DNA of 64,000 bases, taken from contig JAZQWM010000009.1 in the NCBI GenBank assembly GCA_045632345.1, forward strand, positions 1,730 through 65,729. Reading direction: 5' to 3'. The position numbers and the translations under genes were made by a program. Positions 1,845-61,413 of the stretch are shown in pieces. Within the stretch, counting starts at the first letter, position 1. The number at the start of each line of letters is the position of its first letter. The notes under the pieces were generated by a model. That model was not told where the DNA came from. It saw only the letters and a program-made list of their open reading frames with translations, and did no database searches. This DNA comes from Eubacteriales bacterium (GTDB lineage: Bacteria > Bacillota > Clostridia > Oscillospirales > CAG-272).

Positions 1845-3995
1845 CTATATATTATCTTCTTCGGAGTCCGTATTATCAACGGTTTCGTTTAAATCCTCTT
1901 CCGTCATCTGCACCCTTACGGATGCTTTTTCTATTTTAAGCGGATTTTCCAAAGTATTTTCTATTATTTGATATTCACTTGAGTTATCAAATTCTTCTTT
2001 TTGCTGTTGCTTTTCTTTAGCGCTTGCCGCGTAGTCGTCCATACGCTTTTTAAATTTAGCATCAATGTTTTTAGGCAAACGAACGTATTTTCTGCTTGGA
2101 GTTTTTTCTTGATTAGCTTCCTCATCTAACACGACATCCAAAACTGACATAGTATGGTCGTAGGTCAAGCTTTCAGGAGCTTCCTCTTCTCTTTCGATAC
2201 GGATATACGCAAAGGAAAGAGCGATTAAAATCCAGAACATTAAAAATATTTTTTTGTCATACCACGTATAGTTGGCAACGCCTGCCAAGGTTAGACCTGC
2301 AATAGCGCAAAAGCTTGCACAGCAGTTTATTTTTCTATATTGGTTTTTCGCCTTCAAACAATAGGAAAACGTAAGTCTGATAAGCATAACGCCAAACACT
2401 AATATACCGATAAATACTATTACACCGTACTCTAACAGTGCTTGAATTATTGCGTTATCAAAATATCCCTCGTTAGCTTGGAACGTTGATTTGAAAACCC
2501 CTTCGCCAAGACCGATACCGAAAGGCTTTTTGAGTACTAGGCTTAATCCGTTCATTGTTTCATCAATCAAGCCTGTTAACGATACACCCTCAAGAATTTT
2601 AGTGGATAAAATACTTTCAAGAGCTGTTTTTGGAAGTGTAAAATAAAGAACCGGACACATCACTAAAATGGCTAGCGTTAAATATACGAAGTTCCTATTA
2701 AATATCATCAGCAGCAGTAATGATGCGCATGCTATGCCGATAATGCCTGAAAGTGAATTTGTAAGGCATAAGGCAACCACCATAACTATACCGATTAAAA
2801 TACCGTTTAATTTCTTCCAGCCGTTTCTCTCCGATATAAAATGCACCATGGAAAATGGGATTACCGCGGCAAGATAATGAGCTAAAACGTCGGAGCTATT
2901 GAACGTTCCTACCGCGTTTTGTCCATTAATAAATAAGAATGAAAGCTGTGGAATATTTACTTCCGTATTACCGAATATTACTTGAATAATTGAAATGATA
3001 GCTACCGCTAAGCCTGAAAACACTAGTGAAATCAAGCATCTTCTAAACCATTCCTTTGAGCGTATTAGATTTGTTAATACAAAATAGAACAAGGTGAAGC
3101 ATGCTAAAAACAATGCGTTTGTGATTGACTCCTTAGGGTTAACGGAGATAGAGCCACGTATCAGGGTTAGGGCGAATATCATTATAACAAATACGTCAAA
3201 ATATTCGATTTTAAAGGTTCTTCTGCCTAAAATACACTTTACCGTGTAGCTAAAGAGCACGAATAAAACGCAATATAGAAGTATTTTAACAGGTGCGAAT
3301 GGCAATATTGTAACAACTGCCAAGGCGCCGATTTCCGGGTGGCGTAAAACGCAATATGCTAGTATAGTCAAGAGCATGATTCCCACTAAGCCAAGAGGCG
3401 TAGTAAAATAGGATAAAATTCCTAATCCTATTCCAATGAAAAATGCTACGTTAGTAAGTGATACACGTTTTTTTTCAGAAATTTGTCTCATTCTTTCTTT
3501 GTTCATGCCAAAAAATCTGAACAAAATCAAATCACTTATCTTACTGTTGTAAATATTGGTTGATATAGGTTTTCCCGACACTAAAAAGGGAATGCCTAAA
3601 CCGCATACAATTAGTCCGGATACGAACATAGGAAACGTTACTTCCAAAAACAAAACGTATTCGTTTAACGGATACAATAGCGCTATTGTTGCGCCCATTG
3701 TTATTAGTATAAAGCCGTAATCGCGCGTTGTTACACGAAGCAGCCAATCAGCGAACTTACGGATTGCTTTTATGATAGCGTTTTTTTGAATTGATTTGGA
3801 AACAGCCTTTTTAATTCTGCTGTGTCCTACTTTTTTTCTTTTGCGTTTAGCCGATTGCAGATATTTTTCGTTAGCCTCGTCATATGAGGTAAAGAATCTG
3901 CCAAATATTCCGTTTTTAAAAAGGAAAAAGATTTTTTCACTGATAACATCAAATATTGAGCGACCGTCTATCTTGCTCTTCTTTTTTCTTTCCAA
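1845..3995 (-). CDS. Polytopic membrane protein, O-antigen-ligase (Wzy_C)-like, with a long acidic C-terminal tail
   Basis: 716-aa ORF with many hydrophobic helices. SLSGIIGIACASLLLL and GIGLGEG...DNAIIQALLEYGVIVFIG resemble the Wzy_C core. The last ~110 aa are rich in K, E and D. Confidence 0.55.
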   Translation of the reverse strand: MERKKKSKIDGRSIFDVISEKIFFLFKNGIFGRFFTSYDEANEKYLQSAKRKRKKVGHSRIKKAVSKSIQKNAIIKAIRKFADWLLRVTTRDYGFILITMGATIALLYPLNEYVLFLEVTFPMFVSGLIVCGLGIPFLVSGKPISTNIYNSKISDLILFRFFGMNKERMRQISEKKRVSLTNVAFFIGIGLGILSYFTTPLGLVGIMLLTILAYCVLRHPEIGALAVVTILPFAPVKILLYCVLFVLFSYTVKCILGRRTFKIEYFDVFVIMIFALTLIRGSISVNPKESITNALFLACFTLFYFVLTNLIRSKEWFRRCLISLVFSGLAVAIISIIQVIFGNTEVNIPQLSFLFINGQNAVGTFNSSDVLAHYLAAVIPFSMVHFISERNGWKKLNGILIGIVMVVALCLTNSLSGIIGIACASLLLLMIFNRNFVYLTLAILVMCPVLYFTLPKTALESILSTKILEGVSLTGLIDETMNGLSLVLKKPFGIGLGEGVFKSTFQANEGYFDNAIIQALLEYGVIVFIGILVFGVMLIRLTFSYCLKAKNQYRKINCCASFCAIAGLTLAGVANYTWYDKKIFLMFWILIALSFAYIRIEREEEAPESLTYDHTMSVLDVVLDEEANQEKTPSRKYVRLPKNIDAKFKKRMDDYAASAKEKQQQKEEFDNSSEYQIIENTLENPLKIEKASVRVQMTEEDLNETVDNTDSEEDNI

Positions 3996-5412: not shown

Positions 5413-5441
5413 TTGACAAGTTGGAATTTATGTGTTAAAAT
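5413..5441 (+). promoter_or_regulatory. Sigma-A-type promoter of rpmG-secE-nusG
   Basis: TTGACA (5413-5418), 17-nt spacer, TGtTAAAAT (5436-5441). Leaves a leader of about 140 nt. Confidence 0.55.
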
Positions 5442-5587
5442 AGTTGCACCTCTTGTATGGGGTACTTTTTTTGGCGCGCAAAAATGTCAAAAAATAGGTA
5501 AATCCTCTTGTAAGAGGGAGGTACAAAATGCACGCAAGTGCAAATTTATGGGTTCTACCCAAATCATAATTAGGAGGTGCCGCAAAA

Positions 5588-6549: not shown

Positions 6550-6585
6550 AATTATAGCGCGTGACTGCTATGAGAGTCACAAATC

Positions 6586-6640
6586 AGTGGGAGAGAGAAA
6601 AATCTTTTCTAATTCTCTCGTAGAGTACCACTTAGGAGGT
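6586..6640 (+). promoter_or_regulatory. Candidate L1-binding translational operator hairpin abutting the rplK RBS
   Basis: AGTGG-GAGAGAG...CTCTC-gtagagta-CCACT (6586-6632), immediately followed by taggaggt. Confidence 0.3.
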
Positions 6641-6648
6641 TTTTAATT

Positions 6649-7074
6649 ATGGCTAAGAAAATTCAGGGTTACATTAAACTTCAAATCCCTGCAGGTAAAG
6701 CAACACCACAACCACCAATCGGTCCAGCCCTTGGTCAATACGGTGTTTCAATTCCTAACTTCACAAAGGAATTTAACGAAAGAACAAAAAATGATATCGG
6801 TTACATCATTCCTGTTGTAATCACAGTATATGCTGACCGTTCATTCACATTTATCACAAAGACTCCACCAGCTCCAGTTCTTATTAAGAAGGCTGCAGGT
6901 ATTGAAACTGCTTCAGCTGCTCCTAACAAGACAAAGGTTGCTAAGCTCACAAAGGAACAAGTACAAAAGATCGCTGAAACAAAGATGCCTGACTTAAATG
7001 CAGGTTCTTTAGAGGCTGCTATGAGCATGATCGCTGGTACTGCTCGTTCTATGGGTATCACTGTTGAGGAATAA
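6649..7074 (+). CDS. rplK: 50S ribosomal protein L11
   Basis: 141 aa. [33 protein letters not shown]. Confidence 0.97.
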
Positions 7075-7094: not shown

Positions 7095-7787
7095 ATGAAA
7101 ATGGGAAAGAAATATATCGCAAGTGCGGAACTCATTGAAGCTTCAAAGCTCTATGATCCAGCAGAAGCAATGAAATTAGTTTGCGAAACAGCAAAGGCTA
7201 AATTTGATGAAACTATCGAAGTTCACGTTCGTCTCGGCGTTGACTCACGTCACGCTGACCAACAGGTAAGAGGCGCAGTTGTTCTCCCACACGGTACAGG
7301 TAAGACAGTTCGTACACTTGTATTCGCTAAGGGCGACAAGGCAAAGGCTGCTCTTGATGCAGGCGCTGACTACGTTGGTGACGTTGACTACGTTGAAAAG
7401 ATTACAAAGGAAAACTGGTTTGAGTTCGACGTTGTAATCGCAACTCCTGATATGATGGGTGTTATCGGTCGTCTCGGTAAGGTTCTCGGTCCTAAGGGCC
7501 TTATGCCTAACCCAAAGGCTGGTACAGTTACAATGGATACTGCTAAGGCTGTTACAGAAGCTAAGGCTGGTAAGATTGAGTACCGTCTTGACAAGACAAA
7601 CATCATTCACTGTCCAATCGGTAAGGCTTCATTCGGCGTTGAAAAGCTTGGCGAAAACTTCGCTACTCTTCTCGGTGCTATTATCAAGGCTAAGCCAGCT
7701 GCTGCAAAGGGACAATACATTAAGAGCTGCACAGTAGCTTCTACAATGGGCCCTGGCATCAAGGTTAACTCAGCTAAGATTGGCTAA
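7095..7787 (+). CDS. rplA: 50S ribosomal protein L1
   Basis: 230 aa. [44 protein letters not shown] ggagg 9 nt upstream. Confidence 0.97.
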
Positions 7788-9488: not shown

Positions 9489-9998
9489 TCACAGGGATGT
9501 GTGGATATATCCCATTTTTTCAAGGTATGGTAGATAGCGAACGCGTTGGGCTTCAATCATTTCATTTGAATTTACGAATTTAATAAATTCCTGTTCGTTT
9601 AGCCATTTAAAAGATACAGTTTCGCCTTCTTGTAAAAGGACTTTCGTTTTATCGCAATCAGTAATTGCTAGGAAGTTATGATAAATTGTATTGTGAGACA
9701 CAAAAATAGATATTTCTTCTAAGGATAATGCGGTAATTCCTGTTTCTTCAAGTAATTCTCTTTTTGCACAGGTTAATGGCTCTTCTCCCTTTAGTGCAGA
9801 GCCGCTTGCGGTAGCTTCAAACATGCCGCCATAGTTTGGTTTACGTGGATCTCTTTGCATAAGTAGGTAGTCGCCGTCTTTGTGTCTTACGATAATTTCG
9901 CAAACTAGGTGGTAAAGCCCCTTGGGAATTTCCTTGCCACGAATAAGGTCAACGCCTGCTTTTGTGCCGTCCGATAAATATGCGTCCCAAATTTCCAT
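9489..9998 (-). CDS. NUDIX hydrolase
   Basis: 169 aa. Nudix box GSALKGEEPLTCAKRELLEETGI. Confidence 0.88.
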   Translation of the reverse strand: MEIWDAYLSDGTKAGVDLIRGKEIPKGLYHLVCEIIVRHKDGDYLLMQRDPRKPNYGGMFEATASGSALKGEEPLTCAKRELLEETGITALSLEEISIFVSHNTIYHNFLAITDCDKTKVLLQEGETVSFKWLNEQEFIKFVNSNEMIEAQRVRYLPYLEKMGYIHTSL

Positions 9999-10024
9999 AC
10001 TGTTACCTCTCTTCCTTTAGAATA

Positions 10025-10053
10025 ATTATAGCACTTTTTTATTTTTGTTACAA
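10025..10053 (-). promoter_or_regulatory. Promoter of the NUDIX gene
   Basis: Gene-sense TTGTAA-17-TATAAT. Confidence 0.5.
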
Positions 10054-10067
10054 TATTGATTTCCAAA

Positions 10068-10099
10068 ATAAAAAGCTCTGCAAAATGCAGAGCTTTTTG
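10068..10099 (-). terminator. Terminator (bidirectional) downstream of the methyltransferase 3' region
   Basis: gctctgca-aaa-tgcagagc flanked by A-runs and T-runs. Confidence 0.75.
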
Positions 10100-10113
10100 A
10101 ATATAGATAAGAA

Positions 10114-10127
10114 ATTATCTCTTTGAG
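10114..10127. repeat. Copy A of the rpsI 3'-end word (ATTATCTCTTTGAG; minus strand reads tca aag aga taa)
   Basis: 12-15-nt identity with 11128-11144 (inverted) and 11200-11214 (direct). Confidence 0.85.
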
Positions 10128-10145
10128 TTTTGAGAGTACCGTTTG

Positions 10146-10204
10146 ATATCGTGAATATCGTTAAATATCGTGTGATTTCGTGCGATGTCGTGAATGTCGT
10201 GAGC
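10146..10204. repeat. Six tandem AT(A/G)TCGTG units spaced 9-10 bp apart (iteron-like)
   Basis: TCG cores at 10149, 10158, 10168, 10178, 10188 and 10197. A degenerate seventh lies at 10206. Confidence 0.85.
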
Positions 10205-10222
10205 ATCGCATGATAAAGTGTT

Positions 10223-10250
10223 GCACCAAATTTGCACCAAAATCGCACCA
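10223..10250. repeat. Three GCACCA(AA) units spaced 11 bp apart
   Basis: GCACCA at 10223, 10234 and 10245. Confidence 0.85.
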
Positions 10251-10289
10251 CATTAAACGCCCATTCAGCTCGACAAATTGGAATTTGTT

Positions 10290-10886
10290 TTATTGTTTTC
10301 TGCTTACAATAATGTATGCGTTATCAGTTTCAATTACATTTACAACTGACATTGCGACATCACCGATAATCGATGTTATATTATCGAGAGTATCGGGATA
10401 GATCTTTACTTTACGATTTCCCATATCAATATATTCGCTTTGGTTCTTGTCTATGGACAAGCAAAAGATACCGTCATCATTTAACAATTTATAAACCTTG
10501 GTAATGACAGTTGCCTTATTCTTGAAGTGCATCATAGTAAGGGATGAATATATAACATCGAATGTTCTGGTAAATTGATAATAACTGAAATCATCACATA
10601 TAAAAGAAATGTTCTTGTACTCTTTTAAGTTTTCTTTTGCTCGTTCAATGGTTTTTGGAGAAATATCTATACCTGTGAGGGTCATGCAAAATGGTGCAAC
10701 CTTAACAGCGATTCTTCCTGTGCCAATACCGATCTCAAGAACTTTTTTATTCTTGGTAAGCTCCAATGCTTCTATAAATCGTTCGCCATCCCACTGGGAC
10801 ATATATTCTTGCAACATAGGAGGGTCACGAAAAGGGTCGTTATCTTCATCTATCAATAAATCGTAATGGTCGATTACATTCATCAT
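10290..10886 (-). CDS. Class I SAM-dependent methyltransferase
   Basis: The ORF runs to 10904 (TTG); ATG 10886 is the likelier start. Motif I is VLEIGIGTGRIA and post-I is LTGIDISP. Substrate unknown. Confidence 0.82.
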   Translation of the reverse strand: MMNVIDHYDLLIDEDNDPFRDPPMLQEYMSQWDGERFIEALELTKNKKVLEIGIGTGRIAVKVAPFCMTLTGIDISPKTIERAKENLKEYKNISFICDDFSYYQFTRTFDVIYSSLTMMHFKNKATVITKVYKLLNDDGIFCLSIDKNQSEYIDMGNRKVKIYPDTLDNITSIIGDVAMSVVNVIETDNAYIIVSRKQ

Positions 10887-10933
10887 ATATACCTTCAAAT
10901 TCAAGTTTATCGAGTAGATAACTACCCAAAGTA

Positions 10934-10962
10934 ATTATACCATAAAGCATCTAAAATGTAAA
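10934..10962 (-). promoter_or_regulatory. Promoter of the methyltransferase gene
   Basis: Gene-sense TTTACA-17-TATAAT (TGg upstream). Confidence 0.5.
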
Positions 10963-10980
10963 TAGGACGGCTCAAAATGT

Positions 10981-11127
10981 TATGAATTGAAGCCTTACGG
11001 CTTCATGATTTGAAATCTTTGATTTCATGAATTGAATTGCCCTATCATATCAATGCCGTAGGCAATTCACGAGCCGAAGGTTCAATTCATGGCGCAAGCC
11101 AATTAATGCCCGATAGGGCGATTCATT
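10981..11127. repeat. Cluster of short hairpins and ATGAATTGAA / TTCAATTCAT words
   Basis: ATGAATTGAA at 10982 and 11027, inverted at 11081. Hairpins: gaagcc-ttac-ggcttc, tgaaatc-tttg-gatttca, gaattgcc...ggcaattc, ggc-gcaa-gcc, gccc-gata-gggc. Confidence 0.8.
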
Positions 11128-11144
11128 GTTCTCAAAGAGATAAT
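11128..11144. repeat. Copy B (inverted) of the rpsI 3'-end word (GTTCTCAAAGAGATAAT)
   Basis: Positions 11128-11142 are the perfect reverse complement of 11200-11214 (15 bp); positions 11131-11144 reverse-complement-match copy A over 14 nt. Confidence 0.85.
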
Positions 11145-11176
11145 AAAAAAATGCCCCGAAAAAATCGGAGCATTTT
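11145..11176 (-). terminator. Terminator after rpsI
   Basis: Minus-strand aatgctccga-ttttt-tcggggcatt followed by TTTTTTT. Confidence 0.8.
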
Positions 11177-11198
11177 TTGTATCGACCAAAGGTCGAGA

Positions 11199-11600
11199 CT
11201 ATCTCTTTGAGAACTGTGGTGCGCGACGAGCAGCCTTGAGACCGTACTTCTTTCTTTCCTTCATACGTGGGTCACGTGTGAGGAGACCAGCAGCCTTAAG
11301 AGCGCCTCTTGTTGTTTCGTCAGCTGTGAGTAATGCTCTTGCAATACCGTGACGAATAGCACCTGCTTGACCTGAGATACCGCCGCCTACAACGTTAGCA
11401 ACAACATCGAATTTGCCCATGTTGTTTGTTACGTCGAATGGTTGGTTCATGATAAGCTTTAATGTTTCGAGACCGAAGTAGTCGTCAACGTCTCTTCCGT
11501 TGATAGTGATTGAACCAGTACCTGGATAAAGACGAACGCGAGCTACTGATTTCTTTCTTCTACCTGTTCCGTAGAAATATGGTTTAGCACTTGTATACAT
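11199..11600 (-). CDS. rpsI: 30S ribosomal protein S9
   Basis: 133 aa. [19 protein letters not shown]; C-terminal ...RRAPQFSKR. Confidence 0.97.
11200..11214. repeat. Copy C: the actual rpsI 3' end (…cag ttc tca aag aga tag)
   Basis: TATCTCTTTGAGAAC on the plus strand. Confidence 0.9.
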
Positions 11601-11620: not shown

Positions 11621-12049
11621 TTATTTTACTTCGTAGTTGATTGGTTGTTGAGCAGCTTGATTGTGGTTAGCACCAGCATAAACCTTAAGTCTTGTGAAAG
11701 ACTTAGCTCCGATTGTGTTGTGTGGGAGCATACCCTTAACTGCAAGCTCCATAGCAAGCTCTGGACGTGTAGCCATAAGAGTCTTGTATTGAACTTCCTT
11801 AAGACCACCGATGTAACCTGAGTGACGACGGTAGTACTTTTGCTCAAGCTTCTTACCTGTTAAGATAGCCTTTGATGCGTTTACGATGATTACGAATTCG
11901 CCACAGTCAGCGTGTGGTGTGAATTCTGGACGGTGCTTACCTCTTAAAATGTTAGCAGCAGCAACAGCTGTCTTACCAAGTGGCTTGTTAGCAGCGTCGA
12001 TAACATACCATTTACGTTCAATGGTGTTGTTAGCCATAAATGTTGACAT
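11621..12049 (-). CDS. rplM: 50S ribosomal protein L13
   Basis: The ORF extends to 12097. I moved the start to ATG 12049 (ggaggaaaacaaaATG). [13 protein letters not shown]. Confidence 0.95.
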
Positions 12050-24904: not shown

Positions 24905-26662
24905 TTATGCTGCTTGCCCTTCAATCTGAGCAAAGGTTAGCGTTTGTGGTGCTTTATCGCAATAGTCCTTAGCATCAGCACTTCCTACGTAGTAAAATTC
25001 GCCGTCATATACGTATGTGCACATTACAAGATTTAATGCTTTAAGGTTAATCTTGTCGCCTTCTTCATATGTCTTAAAGCCTGAGAGCTTAAAGTCAACG
25101 CCTGCGTATGTACTATCAACGCCAGCAATTACAGTATTATTAAGATTAGATGTTACTACACCCTCGTTATATGATAAAGCTAACGCTTCGCCTTCGTCGA
25201 TAATTGTTGCAACAACGCCGTATGCAATTGTTTTGTTGTTCGCTTTATTGTATTCATCAATTGCTACTAGGTTAAATGCATATCCTACGCAAAGCTCTGT
25301 ATTATCCTTATTTGTTGAGTAGCCTACAAATTCAAATAATGCTGCGGCTTCAAGAACGTCATCCTTGGAGCAGCCGTCATTTGTACAATATACGTGCTTT
25401 TCGCCCACTAAAACGTATGAAGTATATGAAATTTCAGTTGTTAAAGCGTGAACTGGGTTTTCAAGAGGCTTTACGTCCTCACATACTGAGCATTTTTCTA
25501 CACATGGGTTAGCTACGTAGTTATGGACTCCCTTATAGAATGCATCGCACTCGCTGTAATTATAAACGATAATGTTTTTGCCAAGTGACTCGGCATAGCC
25601 CTCATAGTTGATTGTTGGGTCGTATGCCATAAGCTCTGCTTTTGCAATTGTATCATTTGCCGTTGCTGCAATAAATTTATCCTGGGATGCCTTAGCTTCA
25701 TTATAAGTACCAGTAAAGAAGAATGTTACGTTCTTGCCTTGACCGAAAATATTATAGAATCCCTTTGATCCGGTTAACACATTAGCAAAAGTGGATGGTA
25801 AGTATATGTACTTTATGCTTGTTGTATTTAAAAACGTTTCGTAGTCAGCATTTGGACTTGTAAACGTTGTGAAGGATGCTCCGAAGTTTACTGTTTCAAG
25901 CTTAGCGCAATCGCAAAATGCCATTTTGCCAACTGTTGTAACTGTGTTAGGCAAAATAACCTCTGTAAGCTCATCACAATTATAGAATGCTGTTTGACCA
26001 ATTGAAGTTACACCTTCAGGAATTGTAATTGACGTAATACCTGTACCGGTAAACATTTGAGTGTTAATAGAGGTTACCGCAACAGGCCAATCAATGTGAA
26101 TATTAAGCTTTGGGCAACCGTTAAAGCCCGCATTGTTAATTTGAGTCATATGAGAAATATCTGAGATATACTCAAGATTTTTGCAGTTTGAGAATGCATT
26201 TTGAGCATGGATTCTCTTCAAATGAGTACCCCAACGCGCTTCTACTATTGTTGGGAAGTTTTCAAACTTTGCGGTGTTATGGTTAATTTCCTCAACATAT
26301 GTAGGAATTTGAATTCTCACAAGGCATTCCTTAATGCTATTAAATGTAACGCCCTCAGCTGCCATTGCGGTTTTTAGAGTGTTATTAAATCCACTTGGAT
26401 TGTAATAGACACTCATATTTACTACATAGTATGCAGGGAACACATAATACTTGCTTCCGTCTGTTAATACAACTCTTGACTCTCTGTCTGTGGCGGTGTT
26501 GCTTTCGCCGTATGCCGCTATGTCAAGTGTTGAAACGAGGCTTGCATCACAATCAAGACCTGGGTCAGAATCGAGTGGAATGATAGCTGCGCTTGCAGAA
26601 ATTGCAAATACGCATATGAGCATAGCAACCATAAGTGCTATGATAAAAATTTTCTTTTTCAT
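24905..26662 (-). CDS. Secreted BspA-type leucine-rich-repeat protein with Cys module and shared C-terminal domain
   Basis: 585 aa. Signal peptide MKKKIFIIALMVAMLICVFAISASA. LRR_5-like repeats (AFSNCKNLEYI, TSITIPEGVTSIGQTAFYNCDELTEV). The C-terminus is homologous to the C-termini of the three genes at 50303, 53412 and 56442. Confidence 0.85.
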   Translation of the reverse strand: MKKKIFIIALMVAMLICVFAISASAAIIPLDSDPGLDCDASLVSTLDIAAYGESNTATDRESRVVLTDGSKYYVFPAYYVVNMSVYYNPSGFNNTLKTAMAAEGVTFNSIKECLVRIQIPTYVEEINHNTAKFENFPTIVEARWGTHLKRIHAQNAFSNCKNLEYISDISHMTQINNAGFNGCPKLNIHIDWPVAVTSINTQMFTGTGITSITIPEGVTSIGQTAFYNCDELTEVILPNTVTTVGKMAFCDCAKLETVNFGASFTTFTSPNADYETFLNTTSIKYIYLPSTFANVLTGSKGFYNIFGQGKNVTFFFTGTYNEAKASQDKFIAATANDTIAKAELMAYDPTINYEGYAESLGKNIIVYNYSECDAFYKGVHNYVANPCVEKCSVCEDVKPLENPVHALTTEISYTSYVLVGEKHVYCTNDGCSKDDVLEAAALFEFVGYSTNKDNTELCVGYAFNLVAIDEYNKANNKTIAYGVVATIIDEGEALALSYNEGVVTSNLNNTVIAGVDSTYAGVDFKLSGFKTYEEGDKINLKALNLVMCTYVYDGEFYYVGSADAKDYCDKAPQTLTFAQIEGQAA

Positions 26663-38828: not shown

Positions 38829-40163
38829 TTATATTTTTTTAACTCTGTACACTTTTATATTTGTTTCGCCGTTTTTTGATTTAGCCTCATCGCGTGTTGC
38901 AACCAGCGGTATATAAAGTATTCCATTTTCATCGCAAATTAGCGGAATTTTATCTCTGTAATGGGACGGGATATGCTTATCGCAGAAAATGGTTTTTAAT
39001 TTTTTGGTCATTTTGCCTTGAATCATTTTGTCGCCGTCTTTTTTGTTTCTGACAATCAGCTTACCCTCGGATTTTAAAATTACCGTTTCAACGTGCTCGT
39101 ACTTCTTTAAGTCAGGAACCATTTCCGTGTTAACGGCAATAGCTGTCTTTATTTCCTCAATGTAATTAAGACCTTCTCTTAGTGCTTTGTTGTATTTTAG
39201 CTTAATTAAGTTTTCTGTGTTTACAAACTTAACGTATCCTCTTTCCTTTTTGAATGAGGTTTTATTAGGCAAATTGATATATTGACCTACATTGCCACTT
39301 TCTGCTAATTTCAAGCATGCGTCTATTGATTTTCTATCAAGAGTGTCTCTTGAAATCGTTAAGAGTAATCTTGATGCGATTGGTCTTTCCAATGAATTAA
39401 GAAGATCTGTGCTTACTCTTGTTCTAATTCTGTTTTCTTCAATGATTTTGTCGCAAGCATCCTGAATAAATTTATCGTCATCGCGAAGAAGCTCGCCCAT
39501 TCTAAGACATGAATCAATAAACGATGGATTAATTTTTTCGAGCATTGGAATTACTTCGTGTCTTATATAATTTCGAGTATAATCTGTGTCAAGATTAGTA
39601 GAGTCGTTTACGAAGGTAATTGAATTTTTCTTGCAATATTCGAGAATTTCTTCCTTGGAGCAATAGATAAGAGGTCTTACAACGTTATTAGCCACAGGCT
39701 TAATTCCAGCAATTCCCTTTGCTCCGCTTCCTCTTGATAAATTAAATATTACAGTTTCAGCATTATCGTTTGCATTATGGGCAGTTACAATACATTTATA
39801 GTCGCTGTTTTGTGAAATTATTTTATTAAAGATTTTATATCTTTCTTCTCTTGCCGTTTCCTCAAGGCCTTGCTTTCTTTCCTCAGCCAAATATGGAACG
39901 TCAATACGGAAGGATAAAAACTTTACGCCGAGCTTTTTGCACATGTTTTTACAGAAAAACTCGTCTCTTAGCGCTTCCTCGCCTCTTATCATATGATTGA
40001 TATGAATCGCTAAAAGCTTTTTTGTTTTCTTTGACAAATAATGCAGTATTGCGCTTGAATCCGCTCCACCTGAAAAGCCTATTATAGCGCCTTCATAAAT
40101 ATTACTCATTTCATATTGCTTGATAGCTTTTTCAATCTTATTTTCCACAACTAAAATCCTCAA
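38829..40163 (-). CDS. tilS: tRNA(Ile)-lysidine synthetase
   Basis: PP-loop GFSGGADSS. The ORF begins at TTG 40163. GTG 40148 is a plausible real start (gagga 8 nt upstream). Confidence 0.9.
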   Translation of the reverse strand: MRILVVENKIEKAIKQYEMSNIYEGAIIGFSGGADSSAILHYLSKKTKKLLAIHINHMIRGEEALRDEFFCKNMCKKLGVKFLSFRIDVPYLAEERKQGLEETAREERYKIFNKIISQNSDYKCIVTAHNANDNAETVIFNLSRGSGAKGIAGIKPVANNVVRPLIYCSKEEILEYCKKNSITFVNDSTNLDTDYTRNYIRHEVIPMLEKINPSFIDSCLRMGELLRDDDKFIQDACDKIIEENRIRTRVSTDLLNSLERPIASRLLLTISRDTLDRKSIDACLKLAESGNVGQYINLPNKTSFKKERGYVKFVNTENLIKLKYNKALREGLNYIEEIKTAIAVNTEMVPDLKKYEHVETVILKSEGKLIVRNKKDGDKMIQGKMTKKLKTIFCDKHIPSHYRDKIPLICDENGILYIPLVATRDEAKSKNGETNIKVYRVKKI

Positions 40164-40244
40164 ACTGTATTTATTTTTTACGATTTATGCTTAAAGAAAA
40201 TTTGCTTTGTATATAATACTATAAAAAATATAAAATTTCAAGAG

Positions 40245-40277
40245 AAAAAAAGAAAAAACCGCTTTTTTCAGCGGTTG
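40245..40277 (-). terminator. Terminator after the 85-aa ORF
   Basis: aaccgc-ttttttca-gcggtt, with a long U-run on the minus strand. Confidence 0.6.
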
Positions 40278-40286
40278 TTCAGAATT

Positions 40287-40544
40287 TCAACACATTTGAT
40301 CGAAAATTATGTACTTTATTGTGCCCTCACAGGCTTTATTTTTTACTAAAAACTTGAATATTCTTAATGCCTCACTTCTATCGGTCGTTAGGTTCATTAC
40401 TTTTTCGCAGCTTTGCTTATTAGTTAACAGATTATTCTCAATGCAAATTATTGAATACTTTTTATTAAACTCCACTAGCTGATACGTTTCTGTAACGTTC
40501 TTCGTTACCTTTAAGGTTTCGCTTTTGCAAATTTTACTTTTCAT
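40287..40544 (-). CDS. Hypothetical small protein
   Basis: 85-aa ORF with RBS gaggt and a terminator downstream. I recognise no family. Confidence 0.5.
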   Translation of the reverse strand: MKSKICKSETLKVTKNVTETYQLVEFNKKYSIICIENNLLTNKQSCEKVMNLTTDRSEALRIFKFLVKNKACEGTIKYIIFDQMC

Positions 40545-40752
40545 GATATACCTCGGTTTTAAATTGTACTGCTAAATTAAATAGCTTCCAAAATTATACC
40601 ACAAAAATTTTTAAGTTCCGTCAAACCCGTTTTTATTATATAGTATAGCAGCTTCGATAATCTTTAATAAAGTTCCTTTATTTAATTGCCACTTATTACC
40701 GGTTGTAAAAATTTTGTTATCATGCTAAGATTTTAGTAAAAGGGGGGAACTT

Positions 40753-40968
40753 ATGAAGGATAAGGATAAATTAAAATTTTTGTATCTTCTGAAAGGATTA
40801 TGGCTTTATGCTATTCTTTTCGGTTTTTTAGCTTTAAGGTTAGAGCTTGGAGTTTTTTGCGGTAATATACTTAGAATTGAAGTAGATACTACATATATGC
40901 TTGACAGCTTAGTTGCAACAAATTTTATCCTTGGTGGAGCTAGCTTTTTGGTTTTCAAGTATTTTTAG
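40753..40968 (+). CDS. Hypothetical small membrane protein (2 TM)
   Basis: 71-aa ORF with a strong RBS (aaagggggg) and two hydrophobic helices. Confidence 0.5.
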   Translation: MKDKDKLKFLYLLKGLWLYAILFGFLALRLELGVFCGNILRIEVDTTYMLDSLVATNFILGGASFLVFKYF

Positions 40969-41018
40969 TTTTGTGCAAAATGCCAATTTGACAGTTTTTT
41001 CAAAAATTTCCAACACCG

Positions 41019-41372
41019 GAAAATGAATATTTTTTTGTCAAGATGAAAATTGATAATTTTTTAAATTCTACACGTTGATTTTTGGCAAATGAATAAAATG
41101 AGGTGCCACTTTTCCACTTTTCCACGGTCTCTTTCCGTGGAAAAGTGGAAAAGTGCCGTGATTTGGCTTGAGTTTTGCACGGTTTCCACGGAGTTTTCCA
41201 CGTTTTTAGCATTTTCGCACACTAAAGCGTGGATATTTTCTGTTTTATACATTTGCCTATCTTGATTGTGCAACATTAACAAATTTAGTTAGTAAACTAA
41301 TATATTTTCGCGATTTGGACACCAAATTATTTTTAGAAAAATGAATAAAGACAATAGCCGAAAATGAATAAA
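41019..41372 (+). repeat. Four same-orientation AAATGAATA(AA) words flanking the DnaA-box cluster
   Basis: Copies at 41021-41029, 41087-41097, 41339-41349 and 41362-41372. Confidence 0.8.
41107..41236. promoter_or_regulatory. Cluster of eight DnaA-box-like 8-mers, including a perfect 21-bp inverted repeat
   Basis: TTTTCCAC at 41110, 41118 and 41194. Inverted GTGGAAAA at 41137 and 41145. TTTTGCAC at 41173, GTTTCCAC at 41182, inverted GTGGATAT at 41229. Palindrome arms 41107-41127 and 41135-41155. Confidence 0.6.
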
Positions 41373-41515
41373 TTTTTACAGCTTTTCGACAATAAAATCT
41401 GTTGTTTTTTGTAGAATAATATCATTTATGATAATATTTTGTGTTTTTCATTTTTTCATGGTCAAAATGCATAAATTGTTAACTTTTCTTTAATATTGAA
41501 ATTTGTGTTTGGCAT

Positions 41516-41552
41516 AAAACAAAAAAGGATTTTGCATCTGCAAAATCCTTTT
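41516..41552 (-). terminator. Terminator after the DUF1846 gene (hairpin also usable on the plus strand)
   Basis: aggattttgca-tc-tgcaaaatcct flanked by A-runs and T-runs. Confidence 0.7.
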
Positions 41553-41562
41553 CAAATTTTAA

Positions 41563-50302: not shown

Positions 50303-53248
50303 TTATTCTGTTAGTGAGTTTATCGACACACCTGTTGGTAGGCTTGTTTGAGTAGCTTGTAGATATACTGTTGTATCTCCCTCAGTTAAGTAGATTGCCA
50401 TAACAACTGCTAGGTCTTTATTTGCATCGTTAAAGCCTGATACCTTCAAGTCAAAGCCACAGAATTTTCTGTCAAGCTCTGCTTTTTGAGTAAAGGATAC
50501 TATCTCGTTATCAAGAGGAGCTTTTCCGTTGAGCTTTTCTTCAAGCGATAATACAACGCCGTAGCTTACTGACGTTTGATTTAAAGCTTCATAAGCATCA
50601 ATGGCACTCTTATTTATCATAAAGCCCATTGTAATTTCAAGTCTGCCATCCTCTGGCATTGAGTAGCCTAGGAATAAGAATAGTGGATCGGCAGATGGTG
50701 CTTCCTCAATATATTCACTCTCGCACACGCTGCAAATACAGGTCTTTGTACCTGTAAATACAAATCCGTTTGCGTAAGAAACGCCGATTATTTCGCCTTC
50801 CTTATGACCTGTAATTGGTAATAGCTCGTAGGTGTACGTAATTTCCTCATAGTTATTGCTATTTGTTTTTTGGTTAGTAAACACCTTAACGGTTACCTCG
50901 CCCTCAACGAATTCTCCGCAAGGGCAGTCGCCCTTATAACCCTTAAAGCCCACCTCTGTACACGTATCAACAACCTTGGTTGCTTCAACTAGTGGATGCG
51001 GAATACCGTAAACAATTTTATATGCAGGATAGGTTACACCGTCAACGGTTTTAGATTCACAGTTACTGAATGCGCTTCCGTGTGTAATTGGAGCGTTTGT
51101 ATAAACGGTAATACCGTGGCTCTTATGGAATGCATCATTGCTAAGTGAAAGCTCTGTTGAGTGAATATAAATTTCCGCAGGTCCTGTTGTTGGGTCGTTA
51201 TCGTCTGCCCATTCGTACGAGTAGCAGAACGTCCAGCCTGCTGGGAATTTATTTACTTCCATTAAAACAGCCTTTTTGAGCTTATAGTTTCTATTAAACG
51301 GGTCGTTATCTAAGGAAGTTATTCCTCTGCCTACGTAGATATATTCTATATTGTTTTCCCAGAATGCACTACCTGTAAATTGAGGTCTTGAATAGTCAGG
51401 CAAAATAATTTCTTTAATGCCTGTACAGTTACCAAATGCTTTACCTGCAAGAACATAATCGCTGTTTGTTGAGAAGGTTACCCTCTCAATGCTTTTTACC
51501 ATGCTGAAAACTTCTGCTTCATAGGTAACGAACGCGCCTTCCTTATCGGAAAGAATATTTTTGATTGCGGTGTTTGCGCAGCCCTTTTTAAACGTTACGT
51601 TGGCAGCGCCAATATTGATGGTTTCAAGTGAGGATAATTGTGCAAAGCTATATACGTTGATTTTTGCACCGTCCTCAATATTTATTGTTCTTAATCTATA
51701 TGCACCAAATTCAAATCTAATTGCTGAAATACATGCAGGAACAGATACCTCGGCAACGTCATCTGATGAGAAATCTCCGTAATACTTAATGCCTGTGATT
51801 GTATATGAGTATGCGCCCTCTTCGCCTGATGCTTCAAGATGGAATATATCGGTAACGGGAACACTCATTTTCACTTCTCCGTCTGATGTGTAGAAAACAA
51901 CTTCAACGCTTATGAATGATGGGTCATAGGAATACTTTTTGTTTTCTATTTTTCCACAAGAGGAGCATTCATAGGTTTTAACTCCCGCTTCCGTTGGAGT
52001 GGCAGGAACGTCATTTATAACGCTGAAGCTATGAGGTGCTTTTCCCTCTGATTCAATATAGTATGAATGCTGACATAGTGAACACGTAAATTCTGTTCTG
52101 CCTGATGATATACAGGTTGCTGCATATTCAGACTTTTCATAATTATGGATACAGTCAATAGGTACTACTGTAACAAACACCGTATCACCGACCTTTTGGG
52201 ATACTGTCGTGTGTGTATCAAGTAATAGCTCCTTAAGAGCTTCCGTTTCTGCAAAATTCAAAACAAATGAGCCACCTGTTACGTTGAAGTAGTTAAGCTG
52301 TTCATTATTATATGAATTTGTATTAGCTGAGAAAATCGCTGCATTTTCCTCGATAAAGATAAACGAGCCGCCGCTGATATTAACGTTTATAATACCTACG
52401 TAGGTTGTTCCGCCTGTAAGTGAAGGTCCTGTTAAAACGATTTCGGCTCCCTCATAAACGTTAACGTTTGGTTGTCTTTCCAAGTCTCTATCCATGTGTA
52501 GCAGTCTATACGCGGTAACCTTACCGTAAATATCCATTGTTGGATATAGCTGTGTACCAATGGTGTTTGTATCGCAGCCAAGAATAGCGGTTGATGCTTC
52601 AACTACGATATCAGCGCCGATAAGTAAATAGTTATTATTTCCCGCATAAGTATGAGAGTGCATTCTAAAAAGGTGCGCGCCTAAGCCTGACGTATCGCTT
52701 GGCTCAAATATAATTTCGCCCTCTCCGTAAAATCTTCTGCCTGCTCTTTCCTGCTCAAAGCCACGGTTTGTGCCTTTGATTGTCAAGGAATGTCCATTCA
52801 TAAAGAAATTGGTAATGCCTTGGTTTTTTGTTGAAATGGTGCCGCTTTCTGATACTAAGTCATTCATAAGCTTTACTGCTGTACCGTTTGCAACGGCAGT
52901 TTTCATGGCTTCGATTGTATCAACCTCAAGTGCCTTAAACTGATAAAGAGGTGTATTCTTATCAAAGCTTACAACGTCTCCTGCGCTCCACGCTTTACCG
53001 TCAGGTGTTGCCCATACTAAGCAGTAGCCTGTATCTACTGTTTTTGTAGGGAGTGTAATTTTTTCTCCCTTAGCAACAACTTGCGTTCCCTCTGTTCCAA
53101 CAGTCTTATCCAAGGAAGTTGAGTTTATTCCCGTCATATAGGAAATTGTTATTTGCTCCTGCTCTGCAAAGGTATTAAATGCCAAAAGCATAGCTGAGCA
53201 AATTGTAACTGTTATTATCGCTAATATAAGCAATATTCTTTTTTTCAT
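50303..53248 (-). CDS. Giant secreted protein, paralog 1: Flg_new-like repeat, Cys3-His modules, BspA-type LRRs, shared C-terminal domain
   Basis: The ORF runs to 53272. I moved the start to ATG 53248 (taaggagaaaagctATG), giving 981 aa. Signal peptide MKKRILLILAIITVTICSAMLLAFNTFA. Confidence 0.88.
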   Translation of the reverse strand: MKKRILLILAIITVTICSAMLLAFNTFAEQEQITISYMTGINSTSLDKTVGTEGTQVVAKGEKITLPTKTVDTGYCLVWATPDGKAWSAGDVVSFDKNTPLYQFKALEVDTIEAMKTAVANGTAVKLMNDLVSESGTISTKNQGITNFFMNGHSLTIKGTNRGFEQERAGRRFYGEGEIIFEPSDTSGLGAHLFRMHSHTYAGNNNYLLIGADIVVEASTAILGCDTNTIGTQLYPTMDIYGKVTAYRLLHMDRDLERQPNVNVYEGAEIVLTGPSLTGGTTYVGIINVNISGGSFIFIEENAAIFSANTNSYNNEQLNYFNVTGGSFVLNFAETEALKELLLDTHTTVSQKVGDTVFVTVVPIDCIHNYEKSEYAATCISSGRTEFTCSLCQHSYYIESEGKAPHSFSVINDVPATPTEAGVKTYECSSCGKIENKKYSYDPSFISVEVVFYTSDGEVKMSVPVTDIFHLEASGEEGAYSYTITGIKYYGDFSSDDVAEVSVPACISAIRFEFGAYRLRTINIEDGAKINVYSFAQLSSLETINIGAANVTFKKGCANTAIKNILSDKEGAFVTYEAEVFSMVKSIERVTFSTNSDYVLAGKAFGNCTGIKEIILPDYSRPQFTGSAFWENNIEYIYVGRGITSLDNDPFNRNYKLKKAVLMEVNKFPAGWTFCYSYEWADDNDPTTGPAEIYIHSTELSLSNDAFHKSHGITVYTNAPITHGSAFSNCESKTVDGVTYPAYKIVYGIPHPLVEATKVVDTCTEVGFKGYKGDCPCGEFVEGEVTVKVFTNQKTNSNNYEEITYTYELLPITGHKEGEIIGVSYANGFVFTGTKTCICSVCESEYIEEAPSADPLFLFLGYSMPEDGRLEITMGFMINKSAIDAYEALNQTSVSYGVVLSLEEKLNGKAPLDNEIVSFTQKAELDRKFCGFDLKVSGFNDANKDLAVVMAIYLTEGDTTVYLQATQTSLPTGVSINSLTE

Positions 53249-53282
53249 AGCTTTTCTCCTTAATATATACAATTACAATAAA

Positions 53283-53311
53283 ATTTTATCATATTTAGTT
53301 ATAATTGTCAA
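53283..53311 (-). promoter_or_regulatory. Promoter of giant paralog 1
   Basis: Gene-sense TTGACA-17-TAAAAT with TGa extended -10. Confidence 0.6.
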
Positions 53312-53373
53312 TAAATCGAGCGATATATATGCGTTTTTGGCAACAATGCACAAAACAATATTTTTATTTTTAT

Positions 53374-53406
53374 GCAAAAAAGCAAGAGGCTTAGCCTCTT
53401 GCTTTT
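53374..53406 (-). terminator. Terminator after giant paralog 2 (GCAAGAGG stem family)
   Basis: agcaagaggc-tta-gcctcttgct flanked by A6 and T4. Confidence 0.8.
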
Positions 53407-53411
53407 CTATT

Positions 53412-56288: not shown

Positions 56289-56323
56289 TTTCAGTTCTCC
56301 TTATAATATATTGTTACGATTTA

Positions 56324-56352
56324 AGTTTACCATATTTTGTTCTATTTGTCAA
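56324..56352 (-). promoter_or_regulatory. Promoter of giant paralog 2
   Basis: Gene-sense TTGACA-17-TAAACT with TGg extended -10. Confidence 0.6.
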
Positions 56353-56394
56353 TAATCTCATAATTTTCAAATTGTTTTTATTCAATTTGCACAA

Positions 56395-56427
56395 ACAAAA
56401 AAGCAAGAGGTTGCCCTCTTGCTTTTT
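56395..56427 (-). terminator. Terminator after giant paralog 3 (GCAAGAGG stem family)
   Basis: gcaagagg-ttgc-cctcttgc flanked by A-runs and T-runs. Confidence 0.8.
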
Positions 56428-56441
56428 CATTAAGATTTGAA

Positions 56442-61349: not shown

Positions 61350-61384
61350 TTTGGTTTCTCCTTTAAGATATATAATATATATTA

Positions 61385-61413
61385 ATGATATCACATATTG
61401 TGTAATATGTCAA
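61385..61413 (-). promoter_or_regulatory. Promoter of giant paralog 3
   Basis: Gene-sense TTGACA-17-TATCAT with TGa extended -10. Confidence 0.6.

Follow-up and report, generated by a model that had tools for sequence, protein, structure and literature searches.

In the 64-kb stretch of DNA analyzed here (the window), which comes from an uncultured gut Clostridia bacterium, a 1,084-bp segment (window 10116-11199) is inserted at the 3' end of rpsI, the gene for ribosomal protein S9. Related genomes display the insertion, an empty site in a sister lineage, tandem stacking of such inserts and replacement of the cargo within a constant frame, and the cargo gene, a class I S-adenosylmethionine (SAM)-dependent methyltransferase, circulates among unrelated loci. 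Based on these findings, we regard the insert as probably a non-autonomous integrative element of the rpsI 3' end that is moved in trans and holds a swappable cassette. It is apparently a minimal member of a widespread, modular and hitherto undescribed cassette system. The features on which this proposal rests are the target gene, the three copies of its end and its original terminator (ORF, open reading frame):

11199-11600, minus strand: rpsI (ribosomal protein S9), the target gene, from its ORF; stop codon TAG at 11199-11201
11200-11214, no strand assigned: core copy C (attL core), the last rpsI codons; forms a perfect 15-nt inverted repeat together with copy B
11128-11142, no strand assigned: core copy B, the rpsI end in inverted orientation, directly after the element-borne terminator; reads ATTATCTCTTTGAGAAC in related left ends
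10114-10127, no strand assigned: core copy A (attR core), the original end of rpsI in its displaced position; the minus strand reads ...TCAAAGAGATAA
10070-10098, minus strand: native rpsI terminator, now downstream of the insert, from a hairpin and terminator search

The 12-mer TATCTCTTTGAG occurs three times in the window when up to one mismatch is allowed, namely at 10116-10127 (plus strand), 11131-11142 (minus strand) and 11200-11211 (plus strand), compared with a mean of 0.51 matches in 100 shuffled sequences, none of which reached three. Using a repeat finder, we obtained a perfect 15-nt inverted repeat (11128-11142 and 11200-11214, arms 57 nt apart), a perfect 14-nt inverted repeat (10114-10127 and 11131-11144) and a direct repeat with 15 of 17 matching positions, 12 nt of them exact, at a spacing of 1,084 bp (10111-10127 and 11195-11211). 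The repetition of the rpsI end and the perfect 15-nt inverted copy B, both pointed out in a preliminary description of this DNA, are thereby confirmed. Copy C is equally real, and since the rpsI stop codon TAG occupies 11199-11201, its coordinates in that description were off by one base.

We compared ten rpsI loci of relatives, found by exact look-up of the RpsI protein (133 aa, carried in identical form on 23 contigs that we read). These loci are 92-96% identical to the window at the DNA level upstream of rpsI and 78-90% identical on the side of the NUDIX hydrolase gene, while the gap between rpsI and the NUDIX gene varies. Locus L017 is empty: its sequence, ...TTCTCAAAGAGATAA|TTTCTTATCTATATTCAAAAAGCTCTGCA..., is the same as the one that follows copy A in the window, with TTCTCAAAGAGATAA leading directly into TTTCTTATCTATATTCAAAAAGCTCTGCATTTGCAGAGCTTTTT (junction form rpsI-TAA-TTTCTTATC) and an extra T in the terminator loop as the only difference. 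Leaving this T aside, the native terminator also stands directly 3' of rpsI in L010, L012 and L013, where a promoter and a gene for a 166-aa protein follow. Because L017 is empty and because rpsI and the native terminator of the other three loci match the window from copy A onward, the intervening segment is an insertion. The parts of this insertion and the genes on either side are as follows (RBS, ribosome-binding site):

11621-12049, minus strand: rplM (ribosomal protein L13), upstream neighbor in the rplM-rpsI operon, from its ORF
11179-11196, minus strand: left-end module, a small hairpin TCGACCTTTGGTCGA (11196-11182) and then TAC; unique in the window
11146-11178, minus strand: element-borne terminator, predicted to end the rpsI transcript now; from the repeat finder and terminator scoring
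10984-11123, minus strand: hairpin cluster with the 8-nt word ATGAATTG, first forward and then reversed
10934-10970, minus strand: cargo promoter, CCGTCCTATTTACA, 17 nt, TGGTATAAT; 11 of 12 consensus positions, extended -10 box
10896-10914, minus strand: cassette 5' motif CTCGATAAACTTGAATTTG, followed by the RBS GAAGG (through 10891); from an inverted-repeat search and locus comparison
10290-10886, minus strand: cargo, class I SAM-dependent methyltransferase of 198 aa, ATG at 10886; Pfam Methyltransf_31/25/11
10269-10287, minus strand: cassette 3' motif CAAATTCCAATTTGTCGAG, which repeats the 5' motif imperfectly in inverted orientation (19 nt, 84% complementary)
10220-10251, minus strand: right arm, three GGTGC(G/A)A repeats at 11-bp spacing, from the repeat finder
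10145-10209, minus strand: right arm, about seven CACGA(T/C)AT iterons at a spacing of ~10-11 bp (about 10.5), from the repeat finder
9489-9998, minus strand: NUDIX hydrolase gene, the conserved right-hand neighbor, from its ORF, its domain and the relatives

Other relatives carry the same frame with different contents. In L009 and L016, the left module, promoter, right arm and second core of the window surround a gene for a 204-aa protein without assigned function, and the sequence of the hairpin cluster differs as well. L011 contains two elements in tandem with an additional core copy between them, three in all; the two elements encode a 247-aa protein and a cytidine-deaminase-like protein. 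BLAST splits the window element into a conserved frame (11260-11122, 10985-10895 and 10288-10067) and variable parts, i.e., the hairpin cluster and the cargo. These results settle several earlier suggestions: copy A and the terminator to its left do represent the original rpsI end, as L017 matches the window from copy A on; the empty site proposed for relatives exists, the rpsI stop codon of L017 being followed directly by the sequence that follows copy A; and the segment between A and C behaves as an insertion that restores the rpsI end, since relatives are empty, hold other cargo or carry tandem elements. The iterons, the methyltransferase with its own promoter, the hairpin cluster and the second terminator all lie between A and C as described. 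The region before the NUDIX gene is itself polymorphic (L009 ~6585-6655, L010 ~5440-5520 and L011 ~7500-7570; compare window 9999-10069). In some relatives the NUDIX gene, or the 166-aa gene before it, is preceded by TATGGTACAAT and the 5'-motif variant CAATAAACTTAAATTTGGCGAGG; the window and L017 have an unrelated promoter before NUDIX instead.

The cargo gene belongs to a smaller unit within this frame. Its closest homologue, P0001 (99% identical), is found in three unrelated neighborhoods (L001, L002 and L003), and the DNA that these have in common with the window, at 98-99% identity, covers 10270-10912 only, that is, the gene with its 5' word and 3' word. Each methyltransferase copy is bracketed by ...GATAAATAAGAATTTG and an RBS upstream and by CAAATTCCAATTTGTCGAA downstream, and even a homologue of only 78% identity keeps the motifs. 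The preliminary view of the whole A-C segment as the moving unit of the methyltransferase is therefore incorrect; the inner motifs that bound the narrower shared stretch had gone unnoticed in that description.

In the arrays of L003 and L006, successive genes meet with the 3' word of the first directly against the 5' word of the second, which gives the consensus site CAAATTCCAATAGGTCGAA|CAGTTAGGAAAATAAGAATTTG (3' motif|5' motif). Scanning one genome per species, we found this junction in at least 120 stretches, which come from genome assemblies of several families of gut Clostridia. Among the matches listed, to which the junction counts that follow refer, the records are labelled as Acutalibacteraceae, Oscillospiraceae, Lachnospiraceae, Ruminococcus, Christensenellaceae and others and include several long chromosomal contigs. 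The junction measures exactly 39 nt in 111 of 117 cases and follows the consensus AATTCCAATAGGTCGAACAGTTAGGAAAATAAGAATTTG, nearly all columns of which are >90% identical. Across 113 junctions, 84 upstream cassette types are combined with 80 downstream types, and the commonest downstream cassette has 13 different upstream partners. Arrays hold 2-5 cassettes, all co-oriented, and a TATAAT box lies 7-9 nt upstream of most of the 57 first 5' motifs that we read by eye, so that transcripts may start near the first 5' word. The cassette genes encode GNAT acetyltransferases, GrpB, glyoxalase/bleomycin-resistance proteins, small kinases, MerR-TipAS regulators, cyclases, helix-turn-helix proteins and MATE pumps. 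The 3' motif also stands at the end of a convergent EamA-family gene in L152 (~3795-3825), which lies on the opposite strand, and thus marks the ends of accessory genes on either strand.

Two further features of the arrays deserve mention. In the collapsed junctions of L149 (~205-240) and L155 (3095-3125), the 3' motif runs straight into the RBS (CAAATTCCAATTTGACGGAGG), the outcome expected if a full junction underwent a deletion between its two AATTTG words. In addition, the 60 nt before the first 5' motif are nearly identical among L108, L095, L137, L043 and L066 and, in a second version, among L090, L125, L083 and L067. Because these two promoter segments recur before arrays of different genomes, pieces of promoter may circulate as modules too.

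We therefore considered a reading in which cassette capture is the key unit: a dedicated recombinase encoded elsewhere would act on the ~40-bp double-stranded site formed by the 3' and 5' motifs and would insert and excise single-gene cassettes downstream of a promoter, much as in integrons, and the rpsI insert would be one landing frame with one cassette. This reading, to which we assign slightly less than an even chance, is compatible with the outer layer of the explanation that we favor. It accounts for a cassette that is 98-99% identical in three unrelated contexts with the shared DNA ending at the motifs, for the near invariance and taxonomic spread of the junction, for the free combination of partners, for the co-oriented cassettes behind a TATAAT box and for a gene content like that of integron cassettes. 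On the other side, no recombinase family recurs beside the at least 120 arrays, the site has neither a fold nor attC cores, lone half-sites occur at array ends, some junctions are 160-220 nt long or collapsed, and no circular cassette (...TCGAA|CAGTTAGG...) was seen. The recombinases near arrays are sporadic, with a phage-type integrase upstream of the array in L071, a fragment in L105 and further cases in L072 and L156. In L072 (559-2611), an IS91-family transposase (Y2_Tnp and zinc-binding domain) and an adjacent tyrosine recombinase lie inside a cassette array. L156 (11688-18445) contains a module resembling an integrative and mobilizable element (IME), with ParE/Phd toxin-antitoxin, a NikA-like protein, a relaxase and a tyrosine integrase, which is 1-8 kb (~7 kb) away from a methyltransferase cassette placed after an alcohol dehydrogenase gene; seen once, it is a possible lead to a helper element.

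The junction was also compared with known recombination sites and mobile element ends. An attC-like fold was rejected, as the consensus junction reaches -1.3 kcal/mol (z ~0) on either strand, and the junction is not an integron attC because the RYYYAAC/GTTRRRY core words are missing, the outer boxes being CAAATTC and GAATTTG. A Xer/pdif site was rejected on the grounds that the junction is a 39-nt direct repeat and not an alternating 28-bp XerC-6-XerD site; against the Bacillus dif sequence, it matches 8 of 11 positions in one arm and 2 of 11 in the other, and a dif-like site was rejected by inspection. A miniature inverted-repeat transposable element or mobile insertion cassette would fit the inverted ends (19 nt, 84%), but no target-site duplication flanks the copies in the window, L001, L002 and L003. 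Ends of the IS200/IS605 type were discarded in view of the lack of stable subterminal hairpins at either end. Junction variants could not localize the crossover, as both halves correlate equally with the upstream and the downstream cassette. The 39-nt junction with the start of the commonest cassette had no match in PLSDB plasmids or GenBank phages, nor did the junction pattern in IMG/VR. In the literature, a search with the motif words returned only unrelated TDP-43 papers, and searches for integron-like cassettes of Firmicutes, Clostridia or Lachnospiraceae turned up no description of the junction.

Frames of this design are not restricted to close relatives or to rpsI. A scan of metagenomes for the right-end pattern (ATTCACGATATCAAAC, 10 nt, AAACTCRAAGAGATA) identified 12 further loci, each with a different last gene, which share a right arm composed of the 3' motif (except in L143, L148 and L150), GAGCTGAATAGGCG, GGTGCAAATTTGGTGCAACAC repeats, 2-9 CACGATAT units and the core. 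In L147, the right end is joined to the left end of another element, and L149 contains at least four complete cassette ORFs and a truncated fifth. L001, L006 and L102 have a corresponding design behind a tRNA gene: a terminator comes first, then one or two hairpin clusters with a word different from that of the window, a promoter, cassettes and repeats that likewise differ in sequence. The unit ends in a direct repeat of the tRNA 3' end in L001 (29 nt plus 116 nt) and in L102 (~22 nt, read by eye); none was identified in L006. The repeats in L001 and L102 thus show the outer layer behaving as a classic integrative element that carries a copy of the 3' end of its target. In L006 (1980-2440), two successive terminator and hairpin-cluster modules with different 8-nt words stand between tRNA-Leu and the first cassette, which may be left ends remaining from successive integrations.

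Several observations weigh against a non-autonomous integrative element moved in trans. In L143, L148 and L150, the cargo meets the right arm without a 3' motif. In the more distant relative L148 (14-931), the right arm ends in ACTCGAAGAGATAA and the resident rpsI in ...TCCAAGCGCTGA; this means that the element carries the core copy along and that its copy in L148 did not originate from simple integration at that gene end, so at least some copies arrived, or were reshaped, by another route. We found no integrase using this core in the rpsI loci of the relatives, in IMG/VR or in the metagenome matches, and no autonomous relative among the 10 rpsI loci, the 12 metagenome loci and IMG/VR, whole genomes not having been searched. 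Every family member found lacks an integrase, which would be odd for mere decayed autonomous copies. No excised circle or attP junction (...AAAACTCAAAGAGATA(A/G)TCTCGACCTTTGG) was seen, and the insert is not distinct from the neighboring DNA in base composition. The right-arm words had no match in IMG/VR.

Returning to the window, the methyltransferase is the only gene in the insert, which has no relaxase gene, and a domain search of all ORFs of at least 150 aa revealed no recombinase or transposase domain anywhere in the 64 kb, in line with the earlier reading. The left-end module TCGACCTTTGGTCGA is conserved in L009, element 2 of L011, L147 and L014, and an alignment of left modules shows that the stem of the element-borne terminator differs in sequence among relatives with its pairing kept. 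No other part of the window is as strongly structured as the 261-nt left region between the rpsI end and the promoter (-64.7 kcal/mol, z = -10.8). This region includes copy B, which pairs with the rpsI end around the terminator, and the hairpin cluster, in which four forward and then three reversed copies of ATGAATTG each lie beside a small G+C-rich hairpin. Both copy B and the cluster are conserved parts, the cluster of relatives having the same architecture with other words. Because the architecture is kept while the repeated word differs between elements, the cluster more plausibly acts as folded nucleic acid (a candidate single-strand origin, oriT or insulator) than as a protein-binding site. 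The cargo promoter (TTTACA-17-TGGTATAAT, 10962-10934) includes the word CCGTCCTATTTAC, which is unique in the window and conserved in L009 and L011. In the right arm, the GGTGC(G/A)A repeats are conserved in relatives, including 10 of the 12 metagenome loci, and the iterons vary from 2 to 9 copies. The methyltransferase, for which we counted 1,958 homologues, scores under every NCBIfam cut-off, and its nearest solved structures are generic small-molecule methyltransferases. Exact look-ups found neither it nor the NUDIX protein on record.

The neighbors of the insert are housekeeping genes of a host known from metagenome assemblies. The 142-aa rplM product has an exact match in the protein collection, the named members of its cluster are called L13, and Pfam Ribosomal_L13 is on record for rplM of relatives. 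At Rfam gathering thresholds the whole window has no match, and all matches of 9950-11300 are far under family thresholds. Elsewhere in the window, 40160-41560 (especially 41090-41270) is a 1.4-kb AT-rich, gene-poor region and among its most structured spots, with a DnaA-box-like cluster of GTGGAAAA / TTTTCCAC repeats in both orientations and a small minus-strand ORF (~40290-40544) that has a promoter of its own, TTGACG...TGGTATAAT. At 24905-26662 and 50303-61394, the window encodes four large leucine-rich-repeat proteins of the BspA type (585, 989, 958 and 1,650 aa), three of them consecutive.

Could the variation arise without site-specific recombination? Homologous exchange of the rpsI-NUDIX gap, with cassettes reshuffled by RecA-dependent or short-homology recombination at the 39-nt linkers and frame sequences, would draw on flanks that are conserved between relatives (about 78-96%) and on 40-240 nt of homology in frame segments and linkers; varying iteron numbers, collapsed junctions and the core copy of L148 that mismatches the resident rpsI end fit such a process. 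However, exchange of this kind would not create a direct repeat of the last 12-13 nt of rpsI, let alone three in tandem, and it leaves unexplained both the tRNA 3'-end repeats around frames of the same design in L001 and L102 and the identical motifs that flank unrelated genes across bacterial families. We thus consider it unlikely as the sole process. Far less probable still is an invertible switch operating through the inverted copies A/B or B/C, which was suggested for the A/B pair in the preliminary description and finds its basis in the perfect 14- and 15-nt inverted repeats. All 5 relatives spanning both ends are collinear with the window and none is inverted; an A/B inversion would move promoter and gene together and switch nothing, and B and C are 57 nt apart, enclosing a terminator that scores on one strand only with a T run after the hairpin on both. 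Chance matches or a native, structured 3' untranslated region of rpsI with nothing inserted, for which the strong fold and the pairing of copy B with the gene end might be cited, can practically be dismissed given the shuffle control, the relatives that lack the whole segment or hold other genes, and the contradicting empty site of L017.

For the non-autonomous element that we favor, we propose the following course of events. The element would enter at the rpsI 3' end through a site-specific crossover within CTCAAAGAGATA, the 12-nt stretch of identity, with the left end of the element giving rpsI a new stop codon and terminator, while the old gene end and terminator would be pushed 1.08 kb downstream to become copy A. 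The TAG stop codon on the left and the TAA on the right agree with a crossover to the left of the base in which they differ. The agent would most likely be a tyrosine integrase that recognizes the rpsI end and whose gene lies outside the insert, either on a helper element or in the chromosome, and the ~11-bp repeats of the right arm (GGTGCAA x3, CACGATAT x ~7) may be its arm-type binding sites. The frame promoter would then drive one exchangeable cassette, swapped at the 5' motif (with its RBS) and the inverted 3' motif. From these comparisons we infer the type of recombinase, its action in trans, the role of the repeats and the mode of cassette exchange. Integration within CTCAAAGAGATA by an integrase encoded elsewhere appears to us somewhat likelier than not; the exchange of cassettes at the paired motifs through a recombinase that works on double-stranded DNA falls just short of an even balance, the alternative being short-homology recombination.

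Tyrosine integrases are documented to use the rpsI 3' end as a target (PMC5341023, PMC5090054; reviewed in PMC5704250). IMESag-rpsI of Streptococcus agalactiae and McRImecD-1/2 of Macrococcus caseolyticus are islands of 9-18 kb with their own integrase, and IMESag-rpsI also encodes a relaxase (PMC5090054, PMC5341023). The window element resembles them in that the last bases of rpsI are hit, the reading frame is restored, direct repeats include the gene end, tandems and an empty site occur, and the host belongs to the Firmicutes. In contrast, it measures 1.1 kb, carries a single cargo gene and lacks an integrase of its own or any other recombinase, and its identity segment is 12-13 nt compared with the 61-nt core inside ~160-bp repeats of McRImecD. 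A relationship in sequence is not claimed. Insertion at the rpsI end is known only from such large, integrase-bearing islands. An insert of this size, exchanged and found in tandem among sister species, suggests that there is a class of tiny hitchhiking elements, which annotation pipelines will overlook.

Elements with attachment-site borders and no recombination or transfer genes are known as cis-mobilizable elements (CIMEs), decayed integrative and conjugative elements or IMEs that have a recognizable autonomous relative (PMC5704250). The window element shares with them, and with the pseudo-staphylococcal cassette chromosome (pseudo-SCC), attL and attR, the absence of integration and transfer genes, tandem accretion at the same site (L011 and L147) and a presumed recombinase in trans. 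Pseudo-SCC elements are ccr-less elements at the 3' end of rlmH. In contrast to CIMEs, we found no autonomous relative of our element in the loci and in IMG/VR as searched above, and its compact, constant design of terminator, hairpin cluster, promoter, cassette(s) and repeats looks built rather than decayed. The pdif (Xer) modules of Acinetobacter plasmids are flanked by 28-bp (11-6-11) sites that alternate in orientation around the modules. They likewise consist of small gene units between short sites, have no recombinase of their own and are presumably moved by a host enzyme; the junctions described here differ in being ~40-bp direct repeats without similarity to XerD arms by inspection.

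The closest parallel to the cassettes themselves is with integrons, whose cassettes carry similar kinds of genes. Both have a common promoter followed by co-oriented, promoterless single-gene cassettes, and the same cassette recurs in many arrays. The two defining parts of integrons, IntI and attC, are missing here: there is no IntI beside the arrays, the site is a near-invariant, non-folding sequence of 39-41 nt without attC cores, and every cassette has a conserved RBS leader. Integrons are nearly absent from Firmicutes (PMC4889954, PMC9024848). The cargo gene of the window is one of many cassettes that share a conserved 39-nt joining site, of which we found no description; if a dedicated recombinase moves these cassettes, this would help to account for the exchange of small accessory and resistance-type genes among Firmicutes in the absence of integrons and would provide a simple sequence tag for such genes in metagenomes. 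We tentatively suggest, with a confidence just below that placed in cassette exchange by a recombinase, that gut Clostridia carry an integron-like but differently built cassette-shuffling system, in which single genes, each with an RBS leader and an inverted 3' motif, are linked through the ~40-bp site into short arrays downstream of a promoter and these arrays sit in recombinase-less frames at rpsI and tRNA 3' ends and are moved in trans, the insert of the window being a minimal example with one cassette.

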